IMG/VR virus record: IMGVR_UViG_3300032144_000009
Coordinates: 1-63,344 of that record
Length of the DNA stretch: 63,344 nucleotides
Origin: a virus
Reading direction: 5' to 3' (one strand)
Of this stretch, positions 3,216-63,344 are shown piece after piece. The notes under the pieces are model-generated. The model did not search any database, had not been told where the DNA came from, and saw nothing but the letters and a program-made list of their open reading frames with translations. The translations under genes and the position numbers were made by a program. Each line of letters starts with the position of its first letter. The first letter of the stretch is position 1.

Positions 3216-4661
3216 TCACTTCGCAGCCTCGATGAGCACCAGCGACATCTTGGCGCGCGTTGCAGCAACGTAGCAAAGGTGATACTCCTGCTCGACCTGC
3301 CACGCTTGGCGCGCCCACTTGGAATGGCATTGGCTGCTGTTCAACCAGTACACGACCTCTGCCTCCAGACCCTTGGCCTTGTGGATGGTGGCCAACCTTA
3401 CCACACCTTCCTTGTCGGCGAACAGGTACTCGATACATTCGATGAGGTCCGGGATGGTACGGTTCGTCTCCACCAGCGCACCGATGAGCGCCATGATGGT
3501 TTCGTGCTTATCGCAGATGGCTTCCGCCTTGCCTTCGTCTTCCTTTGCATCAGCCTTGGCAACCTCGCGGTCACGCCACACATCAAGCTTCTCTTGCAGG
3601 TCGTCGATGCCGATCGCGTTCATCTTTTTGATCAGCGTCACCAGCCCCTGGCCGATCTCACGCCCCATCACCGTGACAGGGATGCGCGACTTGACCATAC
3701 GGAACGCTAGGGCGATCAAAGGCTTGGTCGTGCGGCACACCACCAGCTCACCGGGACGGAACGTTGTGGGCGACCATTCTTGGCCCAGCTGCACGACCTC
3801 GCCTTCAGGCGCGTTGTCGGCAGCCTCGATGTACGGTACCCACTGCTGCGCATACTTCACCACGGCCTGCGCGCAACGGTAGCTGATGGTTAGCGGAAGC
3901 TCCTTGCAGTTAAACTCGTCTCTGAATCGCTCCATAGACTCGCTGTCTGCTCCGCGGAAGCCGTAGATCGCTTGCTTGGGGTCGCCCACTGCAATCAGAC
4001 GCGACGTCGGCTTCATGATCTTGCGCAGCAGCTCACGCTGGATCAGGTTCGTGTCCTGCACTTCGTCCACGAACACCCAGTCGAACTTCGGCAGAGCGAT
4101 GTCGTCGAGTACCGCGCGGTACAGCAGGTCGTCGAAGTCGACTTGCTTCGACAGGTTGGACATCTGCAGAAGCTGGCTGGCGTACTCCAACCCGCGACGG
4201 AAGTCAGCGCGCTCGCTCTCGGGTTCCAGGTCGTGGCGCAGTGCAAGCTCTTGCATGACTTGCACGCTGTCCGGAATGACGTAGCCCACCCCTGCGTTGC
4301 GTGCAAGGCCCACAAGGCGGCATGCAAATGCGCCGTAGATGAACTCGTCCCTGCCCATGAACTCCTTGCACAGGTTGCGCAGCTTGTTCGTCTCGACGTT
4401 GCGCTGGCCGAGGAACGACAGCACGGGCGAGAACGTAAGCGAGTGGAACGTGCGTGCGTTGACGCCCCGATCCTTGAGCTCTTCTGCGATCGACTTGTTG
4501 AACGCGAGGAAGATGTGCGAACCCCTGGCGCGGTTGACCGCTTCCACAAGGGTTGTGGACTTGCCGCTGCCCGCCACTGCTTTGACCAGCGCGTTGCCTG
4601 CGTTCGGGTCTTCGACGTGTGCAAAGACCGCTTGTTGATAGGGGGACCAGATGCGTGCCAT
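3216..4661 (-). CDS. UvrD/Rep-family (SF1) DNA helicase
   Basis: 481 aa. Walker A is AGSGKSTT, and FVDEVQD, GDPKQAIYGFRGA and TIHKAKGLEA motifs are present. ATG is preceded by GGAG. Confidence 0.9.
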   Translation of the reverse strand: MARIWSPYQQAVFAHVEDPNAGNALVKAVAGSGKSTTLVEAVNRARGSHIFLAFNKSIAEELKDRGVNARTFHSLTFSPVLSFLGQRNVETNKLRNLCKEFMGRDEFIYGAFACRLVGLARNAGVGYVIPDSVQVMQELALRHDLEPESERADFRRGLEYASQLLQMSNLSKQVDFDDLLYRAVLDDIALPKFDWVFVDEVQDTNLIQRELLRKIMKPTSRLIAVGDPKQAIYGFRGADSESMERFRDEFNCKELPLTISYRCAQAVVKYAQQWVPYIEAADNAPEGEVVQLGQEWSPTTFRPGELVVCRTTKPLIALAFRMVKSRIPVTVMGREIGQGLVTLIKKMNAIGIDDLQEKLDVWRDREVAKADAKEDEGKAEAICDKHETIMALIGALVETNRTIPDLIECIEYLFADKEGVVRLATIHKAKGLEAEVVYWLNSSQCHSKWARQAWQVEQEYHLCYVAATRAKMSLVLIEAAK

Positions 4662-4866
4662 GTTCGTTTACTCCGGTAGGCAGTTGAATGAGGGTTGCAG
4701 TGTACCGCACTGCGTCGGATGTGTCCTGTTAGAGGACAATGACTTCGATGTCAGCGTCGGTGTATTCGTAGACTTCCATTTCGTTCTCCGTTGGTTGCAG
4801 ATGACGTAATAGTGGACGAACGGAGGTCACGATGCAACCCCTAATTCACATCTTTACAATGTAACA

Positions 4867-4896
4867 AAGGGCCCACACATCCCTGCGTTGGCCCTT
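4867..4896 (-). terminator. Candidate stem-loop terminator after gene 4906-5853
   Basis: On the minus strand AAGGGCC - 16 nt - GGCCCTT is followed by TGTTAC. The T-run is weak. Confidence 0.35.
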
Positions 4897-4905
4897 CAAA
4901 CACGA

Positions 4906-5977: not shown

Positions 5978-6184
5978 ATGACACCTTTACAGTTCGATTG
6001 CCTCGCTAAGTTGATGCGATCAAGGGGAGCTTCGAGGGAGGGGGCGCGCTTAGTCCTGGTCGAAGGACTTCGCCCATGCGACGCAGCACGGGCGTTGAAT
6101 GTCAACCCCGTGCTTATCTCAGTCAGTTTAGCGCACTATCGAGAGGCGCTGAAGCTTATCCAGGAGGCGTTTCTTCCGGGATAG
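5978..6184 (+). CDS. Small HTH DNA-binding protein (putative regulator). It is the only + strand gene inside the leftward block.
   Basis: 68 aa. GLRPCDAARALNVNPVLISVSLAHYR is HTH-like. There is no Shine-Dalgarno sequence. Its 3' end overlaps the convergent gene 6156-6488 by 29 nt. Confidence 0.5.
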   Translation: MTPLQFDCLAKLMRSRGASREGARLVLVEGLRPCDAARALNVNPVLISVSLAHYREALKLIQEAFLPG

Positions 6185-9555: not shown

Positions 9556-9589
9556 TTCATTTCTCCGGGTTGCGTGTTGCAGTGGTGTT

Positions 9590-9618
9590 AATGTAAGACA
9601 GATTTCGGACCTATGCTT
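9590..9618 (-). promoter_or_regulatory. Promoter module A: GGTCCGA - 9 nt - TACATT (minus strand)
   Basis: The minus strand reads aagcat a GGTCCGA aatctgtct TACATT. This is the same geometry as modules B, C and D. Confidence 0.45.
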
Positions 9619-9625
9619 AGTTCAA

Positions 9626-9650
9626 GTGTAACAGTTCAAACTGTTACACT
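9626..9650. promoter_or_regulatory. Perfect inverted repeat gtgtaacagtt-caa-aactgttacac (two TGTAACAG boxes)
   Basis: Read directly. It lies upstream of promoter module A. Confidence 0.6.
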
Positions 9651-10164: not shown

Positions 10165-10539
10165 TTAGTAGGTCTTAAACTGCCTCCACTCCTTGTTCTG
10201 GTACATCAGCACGTAATCCGCCCCCAGAGCCTTCGCGCGGTCGAGCAGGTTGTCCCAGTCCGGCGCAAACATAGCGTCGTGCTTGGGTTCCCCACGGTCC
10301 CTGTGGTATGCAATGACCACGTTTCGTGCCGGGTCATCGAAGGAGTGCTGCTCGCCCGGCTTCGGTGCAACTTGCGCACCCAGCACGCTGATCGAACCAA
10401 GCTCGAGCAGCTCGTTGATCTTGCTCACGTCGTTGTAATACGTGCGCAGGATGGGCAGGTTGCCGAGACCGTTGTTGTGGCAGTAGATCGCCTTGAAGCC
10501 GAAGTCGGTTTGCATAGCGATAAGAACTCGTGTAGCCAT
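10165..10539 (-). CDS. Hypothetical protein (124 aa), first gene of the leftward block
   Basis: ATG is preceded by AGGAGA. Confidence 0.65.
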   Translation of the reverse strand: MATRVLIAMQTDFGFKAIYCHNNGLGNLPILRTYYNDVSKINELLELGSISVLGAQVAPKPGEQHSFDDPARNVVIAYHRDRGEPKHDAMFAPDWDNLLDRAKALGADYVLMYQNKEWRQFKTY

Positions 10540-10577
10540 TTAACTCTCCTAAAGCGTCGCAACCATTTGCGACACAC

Positions 10578-10607
10578 AAAGTATAGCGCAGTTCGGACCT
10601 ATTGCAC
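10578..10607 (-). promoter_or_regulatory. Promoter module C: GGTCCGA - 9 nt - TACTTT (overlapping TATACT)
   Basis: The minus strand reads gtgcaa ta GGTCCGA actgcgcTATACTTTg. A TGTAACAG box lies at 10629-10636, 29 nt away. A 6-bp hairpin gtcgca/tgcgac sits in the leader. Confidence 0.45.
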
Positions 10608-10798
10608 GGGTCGTATCAATCTTTACACTGTAACAGTTCGCTATGACCACAATCCGGCGGCCAGGCTTGCCGTCCACCCCGCACTGCTTCGATGGGTGAA
10701 CTATAGCGACAACTCGACCTTCGGTCTAGCAGCGTTACATCTGTTGCATTTGAGAGCGACGCCGTGCGAAAGTGGGCGTTAGCAGTCACTGACAAAAT

Positions 10799-11058
10799 CA
10801 TTAACATGGGTCAACTAGACCGAATGTTAATCTTTTGCACCAAGTTGGGGAGTTAACACTTTTCGTGTTAACGGCGAATTCGGATGTTAATGGCTCGTTT
10901 ACCTGTGTACTACCTACTATAAATTAACAATTAACATAATAAACACCAAGGGACTCATTAGGGTTTCCCCGGTCCCCTCCCCCCTCCCTCCCGGCGCTTT
11001 CCCGGCCCCCATGTTAATCGTGTTAATTTGGTTAATTTGTTAATGAAATTCTGTTAAT
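10799..11058. promoter_or_regulatory. Array of about 12 (T)GTTAA(T/C) sites in the AT-rich divergent control region (candidate origin or regulator-binding array)
   Basis: Forward-orientation sites are at 10825, 10852, 10866, 10885, 11012, 11021, 11030, 11038 and 11052. Reverse-orientation sites are at 10801, 10923 and 10930. The last five are spaced 8-14 nt apart. Confidence 0.6.
10961..11010. other. C-rich tract (G-runs on the minus strand) embedded in the site array
   Basis: gggtttccccggtcccctcccccctccctcccggcgctttcccggccccc has at least 6 runs of 3 or more C. Confidence 0.8.
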
Positions 11059-11118
11059 GTTTTGCTGCACACTTTCCCGCATTTCGCGCCAACTTCACCC
11101 TTCAACCAAGGTATCGCC

Positions 11119-11802
11119 ATGCCTAACCTCTTCTCTTTCATCAAGCCCACCGCCACCACACCCTCCACACCCGCGCCCACTGCGGACACACAAGTCATCG
11201 TCGTGGACAGCCTTACCGCCTTTGCACAAGCGGAACAAGCATGCACCCCCACGCACGCGCCCGCACAAGCGCCTGCAGACCCCGTGCTACCCGTAGACGC
11301 AATAGATCCGACAACTCTGCTCCCCATGCCAGCAGCGGACCCAAGCGACCCGCCCCTACCATCGTTCGAACAACTCTACAGGGAAGAGCAGTCACGTCAG
11401 GTACGCACACAGCTGGCTTTCCATCACGCCCTGTTCGGTGTGCACGAACCCAGCTTGTCCGAAGGGCAACGACAGTTCGAAGCTGAGCTGCAAACCAGCG
11501 CGCCCAATCCTGTTCAATCCGTCACGCCCATCGTATCCGAAGAACGCGAAGCTGAAACCGAAGTCAAGCGTGTCACTCGTGCACGGGTGGCGGAGGAGCG
11601 CAAGCAACGCATCGACGCATGCAAGGACGCAATCGAGACAGCGGAGCTCGCACGGAAGGAGCGGTACGTTGAACTCATGCGCGGTGTCGCCAAGGAGCTC
11701 GAGCCTTTCGACGCTGCATGCAAGGCTGCACGCGAGGCGCTGTTGCGTGAACGCAGTAGCACGGTGCAGGAGCTGCTTGAACGTGCACGCCAAGGTAAAT
11801 GA
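11119..11802 (+). CDS. Hypothetical protein, Pro-rich N-terminus and coiled-coil C-terminus (first gene of the rightward operon)
   Basis: ATG at 11119 is preferred over the TTG at 11062. 227 aa. Confidence 0.6.
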   Translation: MPNLFSFIKPTATTPSTPAPTADTQVIVVDSLTAFAQAEQACTPTHAPAQAPADPVLPVDAIDPTTLLPMPAADPSDPPLPSFEQLYREEQSRQVRTQLAFHHALFGVHEPSLSEGQRQFEAELQTSAPNPVQSVTPIVSEEREAETEVKRVTRARVAEERKQRIDACKDAIETAELARKERYVELMRGVAKELEPFDAACKAAREALLRERSSTVQELLERARQGK

Positions 11803-11863: not shown

Positions 11864-12112
11864 ATGGTCGAAACTCACAACCCAAGCCCTCAGCAAGTGT
11901 TCGACGATACTTACGTGTCGACCATGGAGATCTGCGAAGAAATGGGCGTCAACCGTGCAAGCGTGACGAACGCCATCAAACGGAAGTTTCTACCCGCTCC
12001 AATCGTGGTCAGCCACTCCCACATGCACCTCTGGGTTCGCAGGGAAATCCGACCTATCTTGGACGCGTGGAAACTGGTCCTCAAAGCGAGACAAGCCAAG
12101 GAAACTGCATGA
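11864..12112 (+). CDS. Small HTH DNA-binding protein (excisionase/MerR-like fold)
   Basis: YVSTMEICEEMGVNRASVTNAIKRKFLPAPIVV...HLWVRREI. The stop overlaps the primase ATG (ATGA). The start position is uncertain. Confidence 0.55.
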   Translation: MVETHNPSPQQVFDDTYVSTMEICEEMGVNRASVTNAIKRKFLPAPIVVSHSHMHLWVRREIRPILDAWKLVLKARQAKETA

Positions 12113-14535
12113 CAGACCCGGTGAGCGCGTGGATGCGCTTGCCTGAGGAGCTGCGTTGGGCGCGACAGTGGGTTGTCGCGGGTCCTGACAAGGCACCTTA
12201 CACGGCAAACGCGAATGGGCAGTTGTACCGCGCAAGCGTCACAGACCCGTCAACATGGTTGGACTTTGATACCGCGTGTGCGTATGCGGTTGCGAACGGG
12301 GCAGGCATCGGGTACGTGTTGCACGAACTCGACCCGTACACCTGTATCGACTTGGATGTCAAGGACGCACAGAATGCGCCCGACAAACCCGAGCTCTGGA
12401 CTACCCCGGAACAACTCAACAAATACTGGTCAATCTGCCAGTCGTTGAACTCCTACACGGAGACCTCGCGTTCGGGCAAGGGCTTGCACGTGTGGGTGAG
12501 GGGCAACATCGGTGCAGGTCGCAGACGCGGTGGCATTGAAATCTACTCACGCGAGCGGTTCATCATCTGCACGGGTGAAGTCGTTATCAACGTTCCCATC
12601 GCTGACCGGCAGGACGCCCTTCAGTTGTTCGTTGATGAGCTCACAGCGCTCAACCGCAGGGAAGGGATCTCCGAAGGCGTTGTTGCTGATCAAGAAGACG
12701 TGCACGACGATGCGGAGATTATCGAACGTGCGCTGAACGCTGCCAACGGCGCCAAGTTCCATGCGCTGTGCTGCGCTACCTCGTGTGAAGGCGAGGGTGA
12801 GGACAAGGTGCACGGGTCTTACACGGAGCTGGGCTACACGTCGCAATCCGAAGCTGACTTGGCGCTCATGTCCATGTTCACCTTCTACTCGCGTTCGAAC
12901 GAGCAATGCAAACGCTTGTTCCGCATGACAGGCTTGGGCAAGCGTGCCAAGGCCACACGTGACGACAAGTATCTCGACCGCACCATCCAAGGCAGGCGCA
13001 AGTTCCAATTCAACGAAGAGCAAGCGGCCAAGCACGGTGAGAACCAAGCGGCCGCAATCCTTGCCAGCGCGCGTGGGCTGGTTGACAAGCTCAACGCTCA
13101 GGGCGCTGCTGCACTGGGCATCGCAAGGGTGGAAGAGCCCGCTCCAGGCCCGCAGGGGCCGACCAGTGCGGCGATGGTTGCTTCCATGGTGCCCAAGCGG
13201 GACACGGAAGATAGCTCGCTGGAATGGCCCCCTGGGTTCATGGGCGCCATTGCGAACTTTATCTACTCCTCGGCGCCGCGCCCTGTCAAAGAAGTCGCAA
13301 TCGTTGCAGCGCTTGGACTGGTTGCTGGCATCTGCGGTCGCACGTGGCTGTTACCACAATCAGGGCTCAACCTGTATGTGATCCTTGTTGCACGGTCAGC
13401 GATCGGCAAGGAAGCAATGCACAGCGGGATTTCCATCCTGTTGTCCAAGCTCATGCAGACGTTCCCGCAGGCTTCGCAGTTCGTTGACTTTGCGGACTTT
13501 GCGTCTGGCCCAGCGTTGCAGAAGGCGGTCGCTGCCAACCCGTGCTTCGTCAACGTTGCAGGTGAGTTCGGTAAGAAGCTTTCGCGCCTGGCTAAGGAGA
13601 ACGGTGAGGGGCCCATGCAGCAGCTCCGCACGGTCATGACGAACCTGTACCAGAAGAGCGGGCCCACCAGCATCGTTGGCGGTATCACCTACTCGAACAA
13701 GGACGGGAACATTGCGTCCGTGTCTGGCGTGTCGTACAGCATGATCGGTGAGACCACACCCAGCACGCTCTACGAGTCGCTCACCGAGTCCATGATGTCG
13801 GACGGCTTCCTTTCCCGCTTCAACATCATTGAATACAAGGGCAAGCGCCCACCGCAGAACTACAATCAGCAGCTTGAGCCTGACTCCGCGCTTGTGGACC
13901 ACTTGCGGGGCCTAGTTGCATACAGCGCGGACTTGCAGAATCGCCCCGCAGCCCGCATACAGATTCAGCGCGACACCGAAGCGGGCGACATGCTGCACGC
14001 GTTCGACGTGGAATGCGATGGGGAGATCAACAGCACGGACGACGAAGGTGTGCGTCAGATGTGGAACCGTGCCCACCTGAAGGTCTTGCGCATCGCGGGC
14101 CTGCTTGCTGTTGCAGACAACCCTGCCAACCCGTGGATGACACGCGAATACGTCACGTGGGCGCTCTCCGTTGTGCGCAAGGACATACAGATGATGCAGA
14201 CACGCATGGGTGAAGGTGACGTCGGTGTGGACGACGACTCGCGTGAGAAGAAGATCATGAACGTGATCAAGGACTACCTTCAGTTCGGTGCAGGCCCTGG
14301 GTACAACATCAACCCCTCGTTGCAGTTCGCTGGCATCGTGCCACGCAAGCTGCTGCAGATGCGTGTGTCGCGCCTCACCGCGTTCTACTCACACAAGCTG
14401 GGTGCCAACGTTGCCCTTGACGGTACCATCCGCAACCTGATTGACACAGGGCGTCTTGTCGAGATGGACAAGACGAAGCTGATCACGGACTACGGCGCCC
14501 ACGGCAAGTGCTACCGCGTTTTGGACCTCACTTAA
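12109..14535 (+). CDS. AEP-family primase-polymerase fused to a DUF3987-like NTPase/helicase domain
   Basis: 808 aa. CIDLDVKD, GKGLHVWVRG and GIEIYSRERF are prim-pol motifs. LNLYVILVARSAIGKEA is P-loop-like. Confidence 0.8.
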   Translation: MTDPVSAWMRLPEELRWARQWVVAGPDKAPYTANANGQLYRASVTDPSTWLDFDTACAYAVANGAGIGYVLHELDPYTCIDLDVKDAQNAPDKPELWTTPEQLNKYWSICQSLNSYTETSRSGKGLHVWVRGNIGAGRRRGGIEIYSRERFIICTGEVVINVPIADRQDALQLFVDELTALNRREGISEGVVADQEDVHDDAEIIERALNAANGAKFHALCCATSCEGEGEDKVHGSYTELGYTSQSEADLALMSMFTFYSRSNEQCKRLFRMTGLGKRAKATRDDKYLDRTIQGRRKFQFNEEQAAKHGENQAAAILASARGLVDKLNAQGAAALGIARVEEPAPGPQGPTSAAMVASMVPKRDTEDSSLEWPPGFMGAIANFIYSSAPRPVKEVAIVAALGLVAGICGRTWLLPQSGLNLYVILVARSAIGKEAMHSGISILLSKLMQTFPQASQFVDFADFASGPALQKAVAANPCFVNVAGEFGKKLSRLAKENGEGPMQQLRTVMTNLYQKSGPTSIVGGITYSNKDGNIASVSGVSYSMIGETTPSTLYESLTESMMSDGFLSRFNIIEYKGKRPPQNYNQQLEPDSALVDHLRGLVAYSADLQNRPAARIQIQRDTEAGDMLHAFDVECDGEINSTDDEGVRQMWNRAHLKVLRIAGLLAVADNPANPWMTREYVTWALSVVRKDIQMMQTRMGEGDVGVDDDSREKKIMNVIKDYLQFGAGPGYNINPSLQFAGIVPRKLLQMRVSRLTAFYSHKLGANVALDGTIRNLIDTGRLVEMDKTKLITDYGAHGKCYRVLDLT

Positions 14536-14604
14536 TCCAGTTGTGTGGTCAACGAGCATTGCGTTAAATTAACAGCGTGCACGGTGCACTAAGGAAACAC
14601 ATCA

Positions 14605-16608: not shown

Positions 16609-17179
16609 GGACTACACCACTGTGCAGGTCATCATGGGCCAGCACAGCCTGCGGGGTTTCCAAGCTGACGCCATCGCGCATGCCAACGTCAAGGCCTATC
16701 GCGACTACCAAGTTGCAGCGGTCGAATCGTTGCAAGACCCTGCACCCTGGCAGCGCACCGTCGTCAACGGGCAGCCCGACCGTCCGAGCCGTGCGTCCCC
16801 GCACAAGCTCTACACGTACAAGGCCAAGAAGTCGCTGGGCCTGCAAGTCGGCCAGACCGTCATGGTGGAACGCGACGACATGCTCGCGTTCGCTACCGTG
16901 GTCAAGGTACACGACGTTCCCGAGATCGACCTGGACGCGCCGTTCGATTACAAGTGGATCGTCAACAAGGTGGACCGCGCCGAGTACGACCGCACGCTGG
17001 TCGAAGAAGCGAACTTCATGCAGCTGGCACGCGCCGCCGAACGCGAGCACCAGCGGGAGCTGCTGAAGGGCAAGTTCATGGAGCACCTGCCAGCCGACAG
17101 CATCGGGCGCAAGCTCTTTGACGAAGCGGTGGCCAAGTTGCAGGCCGGCCAGCTGGCTGCCCCGGGAGCGGCACAATGA
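16574..17179 (+). CDS. Hypothetical protein (201 aa)
   Basis: ATG at 16574 is preceded by AAGGAGA. It overlaps the RNase H 3' end by 35 nt. Confidence 0.6.
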   Translation: MQNKHILTLLREDYTTVQVIMGQHSLRGFQADAIAHANVKAYRDYQVAAVESLQDPAPWQRTVVNGQPDRPSRASPHKLYTYKAKKSLGLQVGQTVMVERDDMLAFATVVKVHDVPEIDLDAPFDYKWIVNKVDRAEYDRTLVEEANFMQLARAAEREHQRELLKGKFMEHLPADSIGRKLFDEAVAKLQAGQLAAPGAAQ

Positions 17180-17955
17180 AGGACATCATCAAGGTCCTCG
17201 ACCACGGGTTCGTCAAGCTGCGCAACATCGCGGGTCCGACTCGGCGCACGTTCAACCCGATCGATCCAGCGCAGCCCAACAACTGCGGCACGGAGCGGCC
17301 TTTCGACGCAGACGACACCGACGTCGCCAACGCTGCGCGTCTGTCCTTCGAAGGGCAGGACCAGGACCGCACGTACGACACGGAGATGAAGCTCAACCGC
17401 TACCTCCTCGTCAACAAGCACATGACGCCGTTCGAGACGATCGTTGTGTGGCTCGAGATGAAGCTCCCGATCTTCGTCGCCCGCCAGTTGGTACGGCAGC
17501 GCACGCAAACCATCAACGAGGCGTCGGCACGGTACATCCAACTCCCTGCTGAGTGGTACATCCCTGAGCTTGCGGATGTGCTCATCCAGTCCAAGGACAA
17601 GAAGCAAGGTGGCAAGCCCATCGACCTCAACGACCCTGTGCAGGTTGACGCGGGCGAGCGGTACCGCATGCGCCTCCAGGCCAACTGCGAGCTGTCTTAC
17701 CGCTCGTACGAGCAATCCATCGCTGACGGTATTGCGATGGAACAGGCACGCCTCGAGCTGCACGTCAACCACTACACGCACTGGATGACGACGATGAGCC
17801 TGCGCAACCTGTTCATGTCGTTCCTGGTACTGCGCGACCACAGCCACGCGCAGATCGAATCACAGCAATACGCACGAGCGACCATCCAACTCCTGGAACC
17901 GCACCTCCCCGGGCTGATGGACCTTTACAAGCTAGTTCTCAAGGAGCTTCAATGA
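17176..17955 (+). CDS. thyX: Flavin-dependent thymidylate synthase ThyX
   Basis: N-terminal VLDHGFVKLRN and the ThyX signature variant RQLVRQRTQTINEASARY. ATGA coupling on both sides. Confidence 0.85.
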   Translation: MKDIIKVLDHGFVKLRNIAGPTRRTFNPIDPAQPNNCGTERPFDADDTDVANAARLSFEGQDQDRTYDTEMKLNRYLLVNKHMTPFETIVVWLEMKLPIFVARQLVRQRTQTINEASARYIQLPAEWYIPELADVLIQSKDKKQGGKPIDLNDPVQVDAGERYRMRLQANCELSYRSYEQSIADGIAMEQARLELHVNHYTHWMTTMSLRNLFMSFLVLRDHSHAQIESQQYARATIQLLEPHLPGLMDLYKLVLKELQ

Positions 17956-20063: not shown

Positions 20064-20903
20064 ATGGCACAACTCAATTTCGACGCTTCGCGCGTCGCTC
20101 CCGACCTTGGCATGGAGGTCTTGCCTCCGGCCTGGTACAACGTTGCGATGGACGAGTCGGAGCTCAAGCCGACGAAGGACAACGCGCAGACCGGCGGCAT
20201 GTACCTGAGCTGCCGTTTCAACATCCTCGATGGCGAGTACGCCGGCCGCAAGGTGTTCACCCGTCTGAACATCAAGAACGCCAACCCGGTCGCACAAGAG
20301 ATCGCGTACAAGCAACTCAGCGCCATCGCGCACGCTGTCGGCATCCTGCAAGTGGCCGACAGCCAACAGCTCCACAACATCCCGCTGAAGGTGAAGCTGA
20401 AGGTCCGCAAGGGCAACCAAGACCCGGCCAAGGGTGACACGTACGAGGACTCGAACGAGATCACCTCCTTCAAGAACATCAATGAGCCTACCCCCGGCGC
20501 CGGCGGTCCCGCCCTGGGCATCCCCGCAGGCTTCGGCGGTCCCGCAGCACAGCCCGTGCAGCCGCCTGCCGCGTTCGGTGGTACCCAGCAACCGACTCAG
20601 CAGTTTGCGCAGCCCCAGGCCGGCGCGCAGCCGCAGCAGCCCGTGCAACAGCAGCAACCCTGGCAACCCCCGCAGGGCGGTCAGCAACCCTGGGGTCAGC
20701 AGCAACCCGTGCAGCAACAGGTCCAGCAACCTGTCCAGCAGCCCGTGCAACAGCCGCAGTTCCAGCAGCAACCGCAGTTCCAGCAACAGCCGGTTCAGCA
20801 GCCGCAGTTCCAACAGCAGCAACAGCCGGTTCAACAACCCGTGCAGCAACAGCCGAACCCGGCCGCTACCGCGCAGGTCGCCACTCCCCCGTGGCAGCGC
20901 TGA
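20064..20903 (+). CDS. DUF669-type putative ssDNA-binding protein with a long P/Q/G-rich disordered tail
   Basis: The N-terminal ~135 aa match the DUF669 pattern (GGMYLSCRFNILDGEYAGRKVFTRLNIKN). The C-terminal ~140 aa are Q/P repeats (QQPVQQPVQQPQFQQQ...). Confidence 0.7.
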   Translation: MAQLNFDASRVAPDLGMEVLPPAWYNVAMDESELKPTKDNAQTGGMYLSCRFNILDGEYAGRKVFTRLNIKNANPVAQEIAYKQLSAIAHAVGILQVADSQQLHNIPLKVKLKVRKGNQDPAKGDTYEDSNEITSFKNINEPTPGAGGPALGIPAGFGGPAAQPVQPPAAFGGTQQPTQQFAQPQAGAQPQQPVQQQQPWQPPQGGQQPWGQQQPVQQQVQQPVQQPVQQPQFQQQPQFQQQPVQQPQFQQQQQPVQQPVQQQPNPAATAQVATPPWQR

Positions 20904-26036: not shown

Positions 26037-26564
26037 ATGTCCGAAAAGACCCCCGAACAAGTTGCTGCCGAAAAGGCTGCGAAGGCCGAAGCTGCTGCGG
26101 CTGCCAAGGCAGAGAAGAAGGCTGCGGCTGACGCTGCGAAGGCCGAGAAGGCGAAGGCTGCTGCTGACGCCAAGGAAGCCAAGGCCAAGGCTGCTGCTGA
26201 TGCGAAGGCTGCCAAGGAAGCCGATGCGAAGGCCAAGGCCGATGCGAAGGCCAAGGCCAAGGCCGATGCCGAAGCGGCCAAGCAAGCCTCGCGCATGCCC
26301 GAGCAGAACGGCGTCCGCCGTCCCAAGGCTGACGGTCTGTGCGGCAAGGCCTGGGCCATCTTCGATCAGGTGTCGCAGAAGCGCGGTGCCCCTGCGTCGA
26401 TCGGTGAGTCGATGGAGATCGCCAAGGCCCAGAACCTGAACGAGGCCAACGTGCGCGCCGAGTACGCCCGCTGGCGCAAGTTCAACGGCGTGGTCGGCCG
26501 CGTCGACAACCCGACGGCTGTGAAGCCTGTCGCGCCCGAAGCCAACGCCGGCGCCGCTGCGTAA
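26037..26564 (+). CDS. Hypothetical protein P3: Ala/Lys/Glu/Asp-rich helical region plus the P1-type C-terminal domain
   Basis: AGGAG RBS, 175 aa. AAEKAAKAEAAAAAKAEKKAAADAAKAEKAKAAADAKEAKAK... is followed by QNGVRRPKADGLCGKAWAIFD...YARWRKFNGVVGR. Confidence 0.7.
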   Translation: MSEKTPEQVAAEKAAKAEAAAAAKAEKKAAADAAKAEKAKAAADAKEAKAKAAADAKAAKEADAKAKADAKAKAKADAEAAKQASRMPEQNGVRRPKADGLCGKAWAIFDQVSQKRGAPASIGESMEIAKAQNLNEANVRAEYARWRKFNGVVGRVDNPTAVKPVAPEANAGAAA

Positions 26565-29848: not shown

Positions 29849-30495
29849 CCGGGTAGAATAGCGCTATGCAGATCATAACTTGCAAAGACGCTAGAGCGGT
29901 CGGTTTGAAACATTACTTCACGGGTAAACCTTGCAAACGCGAACATATTGATTTTCGTTATGTCAGTGGCGGATGTGCGGAATGTGCTCGTGAAGATGCA
30001 CGCCGCTATTACAGTGACAATCCCGAAAAGTACAAACAACTCACGGTTCAATACCGCGAACTGAATCGCGGTAAGTGCAATGAGATACAACGTAACTATT
30101 ACGAGCGAAACGCTGCAAAAATCAAAGCAGAAGCGAGCACCTACCGGGGTTTACGAGCGCTTCGCGTTCCTGCATGGTCAGAAACGGAACTTATTGAAGA
30201 GTTCTATGTAAACTGTCCAGAAGGATATGAAGTCGATCACATTCTGCCCCTACAAGGAAAGACGGTTTCAGGTTTGCATGTCTTTGCGAATCTTCAGTAC
30301 TTGCCGAGAAAAGAGAACCGCGCTAAACATAATAAGGTTCTGCTATGAATATCTATATGGCTGCGCTCTATACAAACGGTTATAGACAAGGGCAAAACAG
30401 ATATGTGAAGCTCACGGATCATGAACGCAAATTAGTTCAAGCGGTCCCTGACGTATTGGAATCATGGCATTATGTTGGAAAACAGCGTTATGTCG
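29849..30495 (+). mobile_element. Low-GC patch holding the HNH gene and roughly the first 50 codons of dpdA
   Basis: My hand counts give about 44% GC over the first 120 nt of the HNH gene and about 41% over the first 150 nt of dpdA. The flanking sequence is clearly GC-richer. Confidence 0.45.
29866..30348 (+). CDS. HNH endonuclease (free-standing, homing type)
   Basis: EVDHILPLQGKTVSGLHVFANLQYLPRKENRAKHNK. It is visibly AT-richer than its neighbours. Confidence 0.8.
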   Translation: MQIITCKDARAVGLKHYFTGKPCKREHIDFRYVSGGCAECAREDARRYYSDNPEKYKQLTVQYRELNRGKCNEIQRNYYERNAAKIKAEASTYRGLRALRVPAWSETELIEEFYVNCPEGYEVDHILPLQGKTVSGLHVFANLQYLPRKENRAKHNKVLL

Positions 30496-31265
30496 ACGAG
30501 ATGCGAGCTGACGGAGCATCCATCTTCCTCGACAGCGGTGCCTTCTCCGCGTTCACTCTTGGTGTCGAACTTTCCGTCGCCGAATACTGCGAGTACATCC
30601 ATCGCAACCGTGACATCCTGCGCGTCGAAGACGGGGTCGTTATGGCATCGGTCCTTGACGGAATCGGCGACCCACTCCAGACGTGGCGCAACCAGTACGA
30701 GATGGAGCTGCGCGGCGCCAAGCCGCTCCCGTGCTTCCACGCGGGGGAGGATGAGCGCTATCTTGAGCACTATGTTGCGAACTACGAATACATCACACTC
30801 GGCGGTATGGTGGGTTCCAGTACGAAGCAGCTCTGTATCTGGCTGGATCGTATCTGGGACCGATTTCTCACAGATGGAAGCGGTCGTCCACGACTCAAGG
30901 TGCACGGGTTCGGGATCACGGCCATTCCCATCATGGAACGATATCCGTGGTATTCGTGTGACTCTTCATCGTGGATCCAGTCAGCAGCCTTCGGGTCGAT
31001 TGTCACGCCCCAACACGGTCCTCTCAGTGTATCCACGAAGTCACCCAGTCGACACGATGCTGGCCAGCATGCCACCACGCTGACGCCACTCGAGCAGGAC
31101 TACGTGTTCCGCATGCTCGAGGAACAAGGGTTTACCTACGAACGTCTCTCAACCGTGTACGAGTCCCGTGCAGCGTACAATCTGTGGGCATTCGGCGTCA
31201 TTAACACGATGATGAATGCACAGAATAACGAACGGTTCAAAGCACGAGTACAGGAGCTCTTCTAA
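30345..31265 (+). CDS. dpdA: DpdA, DNA-guanine transglycosylase (TGT superfamily)
   Basis: IFLDSGAFSAF, ITLGGMVG, VHGFGIT and SCDSSSW motifs. It sits next to the preQ0 pathway genes. Confidence 0.8.
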   Translation: MNIYMAALYTNGYRQGQNRYVKLTDHERKLVQAVPDVLESWHYVGKQRYVDEMRADGASIFLDSGAFSAFTLGVELSVAEYCEYIHRNRDILRVEDGVVMASVLDGIGDPLQTWRNQYEMELRGAKPLPCFHAGEDERYLEHYVANYEYITLGGMVGSSTKQLCIWLDRIWDRFLTDGSGRPRLKVHGFGITAIPIMERYPWYSCDSSSWIQSAAFGSIVTPQHGPLSVSTKSPSRHDAGQHATTLTPLEQDYVFRMLEEQGFTYERLSTVYESRAAYNLWAFGVINTMMNAQNNERFKARVQELF

Positions 31266-55425: not shown

Positions 55426-57069
55426 TCAATGAGTTCCGGTTGTGCGACCGCTACGTGCGCCCAGCGCAGCGCTCAGGATCTTGTATCGAACTTCGTCGCC
55501 AATGTGATCTTCCGAATCGCTATCGACGTCGTCCATGTCTTCTTCATCGCGTGGCAGAATAGGAAACAGTTCCTTGAACGCCTGGCAAGTGTTGAACGCA
55601 AACATACCCGGCCGTTCGCGCGGGACTCGATACGTCTTTCCTTGCGCATCAGTCACATACTTGCGCAGCCCGTTCGCCAAGTACACTCGAATCTTTAACC
55701 AGCCTGAAATTCTGCTTCCTGGGGACTTGTCACTGCGAAGCCATTTCACCCCTGTGTACGTGCTGCCGTGGACCTTGACGCTGCGCGCCATATCCACTGC
55801 AATCGAATTCCCGTTCTCGACGTCCCAGATGCTGTTGTCAGCTGGCCCGGGACGCACACGACCGTAGATGCCCAATTTCAGCTCGCGCTCCACTATACCG
55901 GCAGCAATGTCGTTTGCCAACATACGAAGGCCTTGATTGGCTTTCCCTGTTGAGCCATACCATTCTGCAATCCGGAATAGATCGCCTCGAACTGTGCTTC
56001 GCACGGTGCCATCACGCAACACGACGTCACTACCATCCGACTCGGCCCACCAGCCCACCGAGAATGGCGCACTGGAACCCCAGTCAAACGATCGGTCGAT
56101 CTTCCACGTCTTGGGAATGTCGAACGGCGGAATAATGTGCTGCGTCGTGTCCCACACATCCTCGAACATACCGCCAGCAACGATGTCCCAGGAACCCTCG
56201 AGCCACGCCTTCTTCTTGTTCTTGTCGCCAAGCGTTTCCAGCTCGGCAATGTACTCAGGGCTGAGATAAATGTTCTCGCGGTACGAACCGTAGATGTGGA
56301 CCTGTGTTTTAACCACGTCCTCACGGTTCTGCGTCCGCGGGTTGAATACGTTCACAGACCGGCTAACGATCTGGCCCATCTCGCCCGCGGTAATGAAACG
56401 CTTCTTGACCCAGTTGTGACCCGCGCCATAGGGGTTGCAGGTCGCGAACACCTCGAGCGGGATCTCGTCAGGCACCCACACCTTACCGGTATCGTTGTCG
56501 ATCACCGTGTAGTCTTCCGGTCGGAACGAAGACCGGTTGCAAGACATCATGGATTCGAACAGTTCGTCCGTGGGGTACTTCGTCAATTCGTTCCAGCCAA
56601 TCCACGGAAACTCCTGACCGTGGTATGACCAGTAATCGGTGGCACGCTTGACCGTGCGAAACAGCAGTTCTTCACCCGTAGGCCAGACCCAGCGGTAGTC
56701 CGACTTTGAACTGATGAACCGTGCCCCGTCGTTGTACATCGGGAACCAGCGCATCGACTTTGAAACCAAGTCGTCGAGGTTCTTATATTCACGGTCGAAG
56801 ATAACTCCGCGCCAGAATCGCCCATACCCTTTGCCCACGTTGCGCCGGAAACGCATGAGCTGGCAATCCGTCTTACCCGGACCCCGTGTGCCGTGGTAGA
56901 CGATGATATGCGCAGGGCAGGAGATTGCGAGGGTTTGTGACCCTTCAAGCGGAGTCCAAATCTTACGCGGAGGCTCAGCGATTACGGTGTCGCCGTCTTC
57001 CCCTGCGTAGGATTCAAAGTCAAATTCCTGGCTCTCTAGATCAAGCCAAGCAAAGGAATCGAATGCCAT
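55426..57069 (-). CDS. terL: Terminase large subunit
   Basis: Walker A is GTRGPGKT and the Walker B-like motif is WIGWNE. 547 aa. Confidence 0.85.
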   Translation of the reverse strand: MAFDSFAWLDLESQEFDFESYAGEDGDTVIAEPPRKIWTPLEGSQTLAISCPAHIIVYHGTRGPGKTDCQLMRFRRNVGKGYGRFWRGVIFDREYKNLDDLVSKSMRWFPMYNDGARFISSKSDYRWVWPTGEELLFRTVKRATDYWSYHGQEFPWIGWNELTKYPTDELFESMMSCNRSSFRPEDYTVIDNDTGKVWVPDEIPLEVFATCNPYGAGHNWVKKRFITAGEMGQIVSRSVNVFNPRTQNREDVVKTQVHIYGSYRENIYLSPEYIAELETLGDKNKKKAWLEGSWDIVAGGMFEDVWDTTQHIIPPFDIPKTWKIDRSFDWGSSAPFSVGWWAESDGSDVVLRDGTVRSTVRGDLFRIAEWYGSTGKANQGLRMLANDIAAGIVERELKLGIYGRVRPGPADNSIWDVENGNSIAVDMARSVKVHGSTYTGVKWLRSDKSPGSRISGWLKIRVYLANGLRKYVTDAQGKTYRVPRERPGMFAFNTCQAFKELFPILPRDEEDMDDVDSDSEDHIGDEVRYKILSAALGARSGRTTGTH

Positions 57070-57590
57070 TAGGTCGAGCGTGTCGCGTCAACCAGCTTAC
57101 GCTGACTCGGCATCGCAACAGCTTGCCATTCCTCCGCCTTGGCGATCCCAGGGACCACCATGACACCCATTCCCTCTTTGGTGGTGCTTGCGCGGCCACC
57201 AGGGCGAGGCGCGTCCATGCCGTGCACCCGTGCCAGGGTAGTCAGCGCGCTCACGCGTGCAGCCTGGGATCCGCCCCACTGGTGCGCCTCACGCATGAGA
57301 CCCGCCATGACGATGCGTTTGCGAGCTTGCTCCGCACGACGACCTTCACCGGAGAGCAGCATCTCGCCTTGCTTGATGCGAACGCGGACGTAAGTTTCGT
57401 CCATGAACTTCTTTGCCCATTCCTGCGCGAACTGGCCGTTGAACCCGCAACGAATGGCCGCAGCAATTGCGTCCCAATCCTTGAGGTATTCGAAGACAAA
57501 CAAATCCCGGAGGGCAATCTCTTCGTTGGTCAGCGTCGGTGACATCACCTTATCCAACCACGGAACCCCGGTTGAGGATAATCCATCCAT
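57069..57590 (-). CDS. terS: Terminase small subunit
   Basis: EIALRDLFVFEYLKDWDAIAAAIRCGF is HTH-like. TAATG coupling to terL. Confidence 0.7.
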   Translation of the reverse strand: MDGLSSTGVPWLDKVMSPTLTNEEIALRDLFVFEYLKDWDAIAAAIRCGFNGQFAQEWAKKFMDETYVRVRIKQGEMLLSGEGRRAEQARKRIVMAGLMREAHQWGGSQAARVSALTTLARVHGMDAPRPGGRASTTKEGMGVMVVPGIAKAEEWQAVAMPSQRKLVDATRST

Positions 57591-63138: not shown

Positions 63139-63344
63139 TCACAACCCGCTAGACTTCTCGATCAGCTGAGTGAGCAGCATCGTCTGCGTCACAACCTCGT
63201 CGAGCTCAGCGTCGAGAGAGGTTTGTGCAGCAAGGCGCGCTGCATCCATCATCTCGCGGTTCTGTATCATCGCCGCGGAATAGAAGTTGTTGCACGCTGC
63301 TTCGCGCTTCGAACGCAGGGAGTTGATGCGGACTTGACAGTCCG
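63139..63344 (-). CDS. 3' portion of the junction-spanning 79-aa ORF (63218-63344 duplicates 1-127)
   Basis: Stop TGA at 63139-63141. It is in frame with the 5' part at 1-161. Confidence 0.5.
   Translation of the reverse strand, partial: DCQVRINSLRSKREAACNNFYSAAMIQNREMMDAARLAAQTSLDAELDEVVTQTMLLTQLIEKSSGL
63218..63344. repeat. Second copy of the 127-bp terminal identity
   Basis: Identical to 1-127. Confidence 0.95.

Follow-up and report, generated by a model that had tools for sequence, protein, structure and literature searches.

An array of heptamers in the divergent control region of a Queuovirinae-like phage is a candidate replication origin

We describe here an array of (T)GTTAA(T/C) heptamers at positions 10800 to 11058 of the IMG/VR virus record IMGVR_UViG_3300032144_000009 (63,344 nucleotides; the whole stretch is referred to as the window), in which a preliminary description had seen a candidate replication origin or regulator-binding array. 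One of the closest described systems is phage NrS-1, whose prim-pol initiates DNA synthesis de novo where the template reads 5'-TTTGGTTA-3'; binding of primase recognition sites has been reported for the helix-bundle domain (HBD) (PMC8718748). The N-terminal 300 residues of the NrS-1 enzyme (N300) comprise the Prim/Pol domain and the HBD (PMC7102993); in the authors' view, the recognition sites may fix the start of genome replication (PMC8718748; PMC7102993). The origins of staphylococcal pathogenicity islands (SaPIs) consist of 6 to 12 penta- or hexanucleotide iterons with an AT-rich center and at least two iterons per side in opposite orientation, bound by the C-terminal winged-helix domain of a self-loading Rep or PriRep helicase (PMC9371898).

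Satellite phage P4 resembles the window in having multiple short repeats in both orientations together with a primase-helicase. Its ori and crr contain several copies of the octamer TGTTCACC in both orientations, which are bound by the C-terminal winged-helix domain of the alpha primase-helicase. However, P4 needs crr as a second, distant site, and alpha has a DnaG-type primase domain, whereas the primase of the window is of the AEP type. Origins of the lambda type and of the lactococcal c2 type are activated by transcription, and that of c2 lies in a divergent early control region. They are like the window in that repeats adjoin an AT-rich stretch and a promoter reads into the origin, but the lambda iterons are about 19 bp long, phased, and bound by the dedicated O protein, and no O-type dedicated initiator is evident in the window. 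Small excisionase-type winged-helix proteins (P2 Cox, 186 Apl, and lambda Xis) act on short direct repeats between divergent promoters; these arrays are helically phased and come from temperate switches, whereas the spacing in the window is 7 to 9 nt and its lineage is virulent. P1 pac, lambda cosB, and T7 SRL/SRR are clusters of short repeats (hexamers or heptamers) flanking DNA cut sites, and their likeness to the window lies in the clustered short repeats.

The window, with a GC content of 58%, is a complete Queuovirinae-like siphovirus genome in which the leftward genes begin at about 10.5 kb and the rightward genes at about 11.1 kb, and the 579-bp gap between them (10540 to 11118) holds the array. 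Our analysis supports a functional, conserved array of sites and leans to an origin over an operator. With moderate confidence, on the basis of sequence, modeled structure, and analogy, we propose that the array is the replication origin of the phage, made of recognition sites for its primase-helicase. The origin reading rests on the array flanking the least stable DNA of the genome and heading the primase-helicase operon, on the relatedness of the primase to the NrS-1 prim-pol, whose genome has an analogous array, and on a layout that matches SaPI origins. Of the preliminary case for an origin or regulator array, the clustered array itself stands, while the arguments from genome-wide enrichment and from isolated copies fail, as described below.

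Between 10800 and 11058 there are 12 distinct GTTAA(T/C) sites, of which ten read GTTAAT and two are GTTAAC palindromes. They are arranged around an AT-rich block and a spacer as follows.

10800 to 10891, mixed orientation: left set of five sites, at 10800 (minus), 10826 (plus), 10852 and 10867 (GTTAAC palindromes), and 10886 (plus)
10903 to 10945: AT-rich block, the least stable DNA of the genome (GC 0.13 to 0.23, more than 5 standard deviations from the mean) and a candidate unwinding element
10923 to 10936, minus strand: tandem reverse pair ATTAACAATTAACA, with copies at 10923 and 10930, inside the AT-rich block
10946 to 11011: C-rich spacer between the array halves (46% C on the plus strand)
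11012 to 11058, plus strand: right array of five head-to-tail TGTTAAT-type copies starting at 11013, 11022, 11031, 11039, and 11053

The preliminary description had been accurate in the sequence and coordinates of about 12 copies in both orientations within 260 bp, in the five head-to-tail copies 8 to 14 nt apart before the first rightward gene (9, 9, 8, and 14 nt from start to start), and in the tandem reverse pair (7 nt). When the sites of the window and of its three closest relatives are aligned, their consensus is the 7-mer T-GTTAAT, and the flanks carry no information. When the gap was shuffled with dinucleotides preserved, a mean of 0.77 sites and a maximum of 7 in 5000 shuffles were obtained, and the same procedure for 10790 to 11070 gave a mean of 0.59 and a maximum of 4, against the 12 observed. 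The array word is also the most clustered hexamer of the whole genome (10 to 11 copies per 260 bp, with about 0.07 expected). By contrast, the genome-wide excess over a few chance copies that had been claimed is absent: the word has 20 matches, compared with 21.8 +/- 6.2 in shuffles. With no excess genome-wide and a tight local grouping far beyond that of the shuffles (12 versus 0.6 to 0.8), the signal is one of clustering and not of excess. Depletion of the word outside the array was considered and ruled out, as the count outside the gap (6) equals the median of 60 composition-matched hexamers. An Rfam scan of the gap gave no match, and single-strand folding of 10895 to 11065 was not significant (z = -1.35).

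The two least stable 30- to 60-bp stretches genome-wide are the AT-rich block (10903 to 10945) and, second, 11014 to 11063, which is the forward array. The preliminary statement that this is the only strongly AT-rich segment of the genome therefore holds at a scale of 30 to 60 bp but not at 500 bp, where 30001 to 30500 is more AT-rich. This latter segment, the most AT-rich 500-bp stretch of the genome (GC 0.446), lies inside long open reading frames (ORFs) and is possibly a recently acquired gene. The AT-rich block also holds a degenerate third reverse copy, ATAAACA, and the homologous block is the least stable 40-mer in 7 of 7 loci from relatives (z = 4.5 to 5.4). Only one other canonical G-quadruplex motif exists in the genome besides that on the minus strand at 10967 to 10992, GGGAGGGAGGGGGGAGGGGACCGGGG, which is located between the array halves; the AT-rich block is followed by runs of G or C in PaMx25, VPv62 (11 C), L014, R7M, HD01, and PBPA162.

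The array is followed by the operon that includes the primase-helicase gene.

11119 to 11802, plus strand: first rightward gene (227 aa, no family match), with a gene of 146 to 257 aa at the equivalent position in relatives
11864 to 12112, plus strand: gene of a small helix-turn-helix (HTH) protein of 82 aa, a candidate accessory or alternative binder, whose stop overlaps the primase start
12109 to 14535, plus strand: primase-helicase gene (808 aa), with an AEP prim-pol and helix-bundle domain (NrS-1-like), an MCM-like AAA+/DUF3987 helicase, and a winged-helix-like C terminus

The primase-helicase gene starts about 1 kb downstream of the array with two genes between, in agreement with the earlier placement of the array between the divergent units and about 1 kb from the primase. 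A model of the full-length protein (predicted local distance difference test [pLDDT] score of 81) had NrS-1 prim-pol N300 as its best structural match in Foldseek, with E = 3e-12 and 24 to 26% identity over about 290 to 315 columns, and the remainder of the model matched MCM-type AAA+ helicases and the pRN1 primase. The best PDB matches in a phmmer search were SaPI5 PriRep (7OLA; 1.9e-14), where the match spans only the N-terminal 260 residues, and NrS-1 (1e-11). The helix-bundle domain is listed for the window primase and most of its homologs in a precomputed table. The fold matches of the last 165 residues (pLDDT 84.6) are mostly winged-helix DNA-binding domains, none of them significant; a sequence profile of this C terminus gave no match in PDB or Pfam. 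P4-type primase families of Pfam and NCBIfam were absent among the matches of the window primase, and the NCBIfam search gave nothing useful.

Inspection of the NrS-1 genome (AB746912; locus L023) revealed a comparable array. Every copy of GGTTACAC in this genome (eight, with four on each strand) falls within a 200-bp stretch at 17061 to 17260, directly after the primase gene and before terS, under an annotated hypothetical ORF, and the array word is the most clustered hexamer of that genome. To our knowledge, this array has been neither described nor tested as an origin. The published octamer TTTGGTTA is itself one member of the array (the reverse complement of GTGTAACCAAA); we found one exact copy in the NrS-1 record, versus two stated in PMC7102993. 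Since the NrS-1 octamer lies within an eight-copy array, a phage with a structurally related enzyme has the same kind of array, with a repeat unit that is read by the enzyme. NrS-1 has a clustered short repeat on both strands beside the primase gene, and the window and NrS-1 share a GTTA core and the exact TTTGGTTA, a copy of which lies in the right array of the window at 11027 to 11034. On the other hand, the repeat unit is GGTTACAC in NrS-1 and TGTTAAT in the window, and the NrS-1 array is located downstream of the primase gene instead of in a divergent gap and, unlike that of the window, away from the least stable DNA of its genome. NrS-1 is temperate and only distantly related to the window phage.

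The window also displays a SaPI-type layout, with at least six clustered repeats, a melting-prone center, and at least two oppositely oriented repeats per side. Common to both are short clustered iterons in opposite orientations, an AT-rich center, and a fused primase-helicase gene. SaPI origins, however, lie immediately downstream of rep, whereas the array of the window precedes the primase gene by 1 kb. The window differs also in having a G/C-rich spacer between the AT-rich block and the right-hand copies.

We compared the gap with those of related phages. Among 50,697 phage records no close DNA relative of the window was found, and no relatives of the primase turned up in viral contigs; the 808-aa primase is 47 to 52% identical to those of Queuovirinae (Nipunavirus PaMx25, NP1, and JG054; Amoyvirus R7M; Iggyvirus), and the primases of uncultured relatives have identities from 76% downwards. 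Every relative with a divergent gap adjoining the operon, including the loci L008, L009, L011, and L013, the Nipunaviruses, and R7M, has a common architecture that runs from leftward promoters through an AT-rich block, a G/C-rich tract, and forward copies to the first rightward gene, and the operon after the gap is conserved as a 146- to 257-aa gene, an approximately 80-aa gene, and the primase gene. In the relatives, the AT-rich block (...CTATATAAA...) carries two to three reverse copies 7 to 9 nt apart (ATTAACA and the degenerate ATAAACA/ATATAACA), and the G/C-rich tract is 60 to 100 bp long, often with an inverted repeat or a homopolymer run. There are five forward copies in the window, two in L008, three in L009, two in L011, one in L013, six in R7M, and none in the Nipunaviruses. 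The core is GTTAAT in the window, L008, L009, L011, and the Nipunaviruses, GTTAAA in L013, and (C)ATTAAT in R7M, and different short words are clustered in the homologous gaps of L014 and the Iggyviruses. In L014 (primase 54% identical), the region 4630 to 4900 is without a GTTAAT array and has instead five to seven copies of GGGTGTAG/CTACACCC in both orientations in the left half of the gap. When the window, L008, L009, and L011 are taken together, every one of the 9 copies within the AT-rich block has minus orientation, and each of the 12 copies to the right of the block has plus orientation.

Conserved position and orientation, together with variable copy number and a drifting core, point to an array of sites read by a phage-encoded factor, and drift of the core between lineages is to be expected if it coevolves with such a binder. 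These data also bear on the possibility that the array has no function and arose by duplication or slippage of an AT-rich word in a noncoding gap. Slippage would give the differences in copy number seen among the relatives, but this explanation is scarcely credible, as core, positions, and orientations persist across primases that are 47 to 76% identical, where the surrounding gap can no longer be aligned.

A scan of viral contigs for three tandem GTTAAT copies yielded at least 120 loci, none with relatives of the primase, HTH protein, or TerS of the window, and the hits in GC-rich sequence represent something different. Tandem (A)TTAAC(A) heptads, three to four in number, are found in unrelated GC-rich viral contigs 5 to 15 nt 5' of a start codon, at the Shine-Dalgarno position, in the following places.

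L043, 3137 to 3165: tandem heptads before a start codon, directly following a terminator-like hairpin
L046, 896 to 917: tandem heptads before a start codon
L063, 5982 to 6003: tandem heptads before a start codon
L101, 6100 to 6135: tandem heptads before a start codon
L095, 6686 to 6710: tandem heptads before a start codon
L032, 11360 to 11390: tandem heptads before a start codon

These heptads may be a translation-leader element, for which the epsilon sequence of T7, UUAACUUUA, offers a comparison. Other short words that are dense in the window are CAGCAA/AGCAAC at about 20586 to 20850 (10 in 260 bp) and CCAAGG/CTTGGC at about 26080 to 26360 (9 in 260 bp); both lie inside long ORFs and presumably reflect repetitive protein segments.

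A further explanation is that the heptamers are -10-like (TAACAT, or TAnATT followed by AAC) or -35-like (TTAACA) boxes of a cluster of early promoters. The promoters predicted in and around the gap, and after the primase gene, are listed below.

10898 to 10925, plus strand: candidate rightward promoter, weak (8 of 12 positions matching), with -35 TTTACC (10898 to 10903), 16 nt, and -10 TAAATT (10920 to 10925) followed by AAC
10700 to 10728, minus strand: leftward sigma70-type promoter, TAGACC-N17-TATAGT, in the same control gap, outside the array
10556 to 10607, minus strand: second leftward promoter, with -35 at 10607 to 10602, -10 TATACT at 10585 to 10580, and a 5' hairpin at 10573 to 10556
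14541 to 14604, plus strand: post-primase promoter, with -35 TTGTGT (14541 to 14546), 18 nt, -10 TAAATT (14565 to 14570), AAC, and the hairpin GTGCACGGTGCAC (14577 to 14589)

The first reverse copy of the array doubles as the end of the candidate rightward -10 box (TAAATT), and the TA(A/T)ATTAAC context around it is also found in L009 and L011. The second leftward promoter and its hairpin precede the gene starting at 10539. In the intergenic region 3' of the primase gene, a sigma70-type promoter can be aligned across eight genomes with the layout TTGnnn, 17 to 18 nt, TA-n-A-n-T followed by AAC, a short hairpin, and a ribosome-binding site; AAC is kept in six of the eight, from different hosts. 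The hairpin has compensatory changes in relatives (GTGTACGGTACAC, GTGCAACAAAGCAC, and GTGCAATTAAGCAC) and is probably the 5' stem-loop of the mRNA of the next operon or a palindromic operator. At three leftward promoter-like sites (9587 to 9640, 10580 to 10610, and 10700 to 10728), we observed an element TAG(G/A)(T/C)C(C)GAA between the -35 and -10 boxes that recurs in PaMx25 and relatives; a copy facing rightward, CTAGACCGAA, directly adjoins the site at 10826.

The preliminary description had listed, with the array, isolated copies of the heptamer in two other noncoding gaps at 9586 to 9592 and 2122 to 2128; these are not members of the array. The copy at 9587, on the minus strand, belongs to a -10 box (TACATT followed by AAC) homologous to a PaMx25 promoter, TTGCAT-N17-TATATT followed by AAC, about 30 nt upstream of a leftward gene, and at 14568 ATTAAC arises where the -10 box of the conserved post-primase promoter ends and AAC follows. 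The copies at 2123 and 49993 overlap the TAA stop codons of minus-strand ORFs, and that at 31200 falls within a long ORF. A role of the isolated copies as outposts of the array is thus ruled out, these being -10 boxes of conserved promoters or overlaps with stop codons. That the copies at 9587 and 14568 are parts of conserved -10 boxes would suit a cluster of promoters, as would the fact that TTAACA is one position off TTGACA and the presence of a candidate TTAACA-N16-AATAAT in L013. We nevertheless judge this explanation very improbable: copies 7 to 9 nt apart cannot each be separate promoters, no forward copy has a partner hexamer at 16 to 18 nt on either strand, and the promoter-type flank is limited in each genome to the first reverse copy.

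Another possibility is that the array is an operator, with the small HTH_17 protein (11864 to 12112) binding the heptamers and, much as P2 Cox or 186 Apl do, repressing or switching the early promoters on either side. Of the three small HTH proteins proposed as binders in the preliminary description (11864 to 12112, 795 to 1115, and 5978 to 6184), our analysis covered the first. This protein family is conserved and, in the aligned relatives, is always encoded directly upstream of the primase; HTH_17 (PF12728; excisionase/MerR-type winged helix) is detected in 7 of 11 homologs, with a best E of 1.2e-5. In addition, the first reverse copy overlaps the candidate rightward -10 box, the forward array is located downstream of that promoter and ahead of the first gene, and the array stays with the divergent control gap even where this gap is 10 kb from the primase gene. 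However, the 82-aa copy of the window itself gives weak generic HTH matches only, the five forward copies all lie outside the predicted promoters of both strands, and the irregular spacing (7, 8, 9, and 14 nt, varying among relatives) is unlike that of phased cooperative arrays. By eye, the recognition helix of the 82-aa protein does not obviously covary with the GTTAAT, ATTAAT, and GTTAAA variants, and the overlap of its gene with the primase start points to a role in replication. We therefore consider an operator unlikely.

The relatives also include a phage with mapped genome ends. Phage iggy, a distant member of the family, has direct terminal repeats of 1091 bp, mapped by Nanopore sequencing (PMC10484667), and the linear iggy record has its ends within the homologous divergent gap, next to a cluster of short repeats of its own. 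The record junction (loci L017 and L018; 42990 to 43050 of PBPA162, L016) falls between two direct 16-bp copies of AACGGGCGTTATTTAC, 47 bp apart. We took this junction as the terminal-repeat boundary; it starts a cluster of (T)TTAC(T/C)A and poly-C in a 1-kb noncoding divergent gap. The array could be a signal for genome ends or packaging, at which concatemers would be cut between the array halves (a terminal-repeat boundary, cos, or pac) and the heptamers would be recognition sites of TerS. The window encodes both TerL and TerS, the latter being a candidate reader of the array.

57069 to 57590: gene of TerS

The records of R7M and vB_Pae_SG_WM_Sew_P3 also break inside the homologous gap, which weakly favors packaging; the start of the R7M record may be the choice of its authors. 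In vB_Pae_SG_WM_Sew_P3 (PP740684.1; loci L019 and L020), a Nipunavirus record deposited as linear, an identical 103 bp matching the AT-rich block and spacer is present at both ends. We dropped this repeat as a true direct terminal repeat because the record is a plain Shovill assembly made without an analysis of termini, so that the 103 bp are most likely an assembler k-mer overlap; 103 is, we presume, the top k of Shovill for 150-bp reads. Similarly, the two ends of the window are an identical 127-bp overlap (1 to 127 and 63218 to 63344). This is an assembly artifact and not a terminal repeat: the exact overlap indicates a circular assembly at k = 127 and thus that the genome, about 63.2 kb (63,217 bp) in length, is complete and was cut at an arbitrary point. 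The records of 9g and Seurat held nothing informative on termini. The iggy terminus is the only experimental one, and the iggy primase is only 47% identical to that of the window; full-length metagenome contigs of closer relatives break elsewhere, and the window assembly closes as a circle whose break is far from the array. Furthermore, a packaging signal would leave unexplained the link to the least stable DNA and to the primase family. A role in packaging or genome ends thus seems quite unlikely to us.

If the array is the replication origin, the 808-aa primase-helicase would recognize the heptamer on duplex DNA through its winged-helix-like C terminus, as SaPI Rep does, or alternatively would read it as a single-stranded template through its helix-bundle domain, as the NrS-1 prim-pol does. 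The AT-rich block would melt and helicase hexamers would load on both sides of it, so that leading strands could begin on minus-strand copies (rightward synthesis) and on plus-strand copies (leftward synthesis). Minus-strand copies in the AT-rich block and plus-strand copies to its right provide the geometry needed for two diverging leading strands. The weak promoter overlapping the first reverse copy may aid opening by transcribing through the array; at lambda ori, opening is aided by transcription. The small HTH_17 protein, whose gene directly precedes that of the primase, may contribute. Spacings of 7, 8, or 9 nt without helical phasing suit either single-strand recognition or independent binding, and the irregularity of the 7- to 9-nt spacing is easier to reconcile with single-strand reading than with a rigid protein lattice. 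By analogy with NrS-1, we tentatively raise the possibility, somewhat doubtful in our own view, that the heptamer is a single-stranded template for the helix-bundle domain of the AEP prim-pol and that a GTTA-centered word is conserved from NrS-1 to the Queuovirinae.

Several observations weigh against an origin read by the primase-helicase. The helix-bundle match of the window primase in Pfam scores 25.9 bits, below the curated cutoff of 27.9, PriRep5 is outside the top 50 fold matches of the full-length model, and the winged-helix matches of the C terminus are not significant (best E = 0.18). The resemblance to the NrS-1 recognition sequence amounts to a shared core of 4 nt and a single exact octamer within a repeat array that is rich in T, and the NrS-1 array, located just upstream of terS, is an ambiguous precedent. 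The Nipunaviruses have three copies only, one of which is the -10 box of a promoter, and in Iggyvirus a distance of 10 kb separates the equivalent gap, in which a mapped genome terminus lies, from the primase gene. No DnaA boxes are present in the genome, although self-loading helicases need none.

The Queuovirinae are widespread virulent siphoviruses with 7-deazaguanine DNA and are present in phage-therapy collections. The literature that we searched describes no origin, regulatory site, or packaging signal for them, and that on R7M, EC151, Vid5, MMDA13, BASEL, and PIP contains no origin, promoters, or termini for this lineage. The array constitutes a precise origin candidate, and the same architecture is found in the cultivable phages PaMx25, NP1, and R7M. 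If the heptamers are indeed templates for the prim-pol, origins of this kind would consist of primase start sites arrayed on the two opposite strands about a block prone to melting, and the primase alone, with no duplex-binding initiator, would pick where replication starts. The parallel with NrS-1 ties the biochemistry of a primase with an 8-nt recognition word to a genomic feature. This suggests a rule for finding origins in phages with AEP primase-helicases, namely, to look for the most clustered short word beside the least stable DNA.

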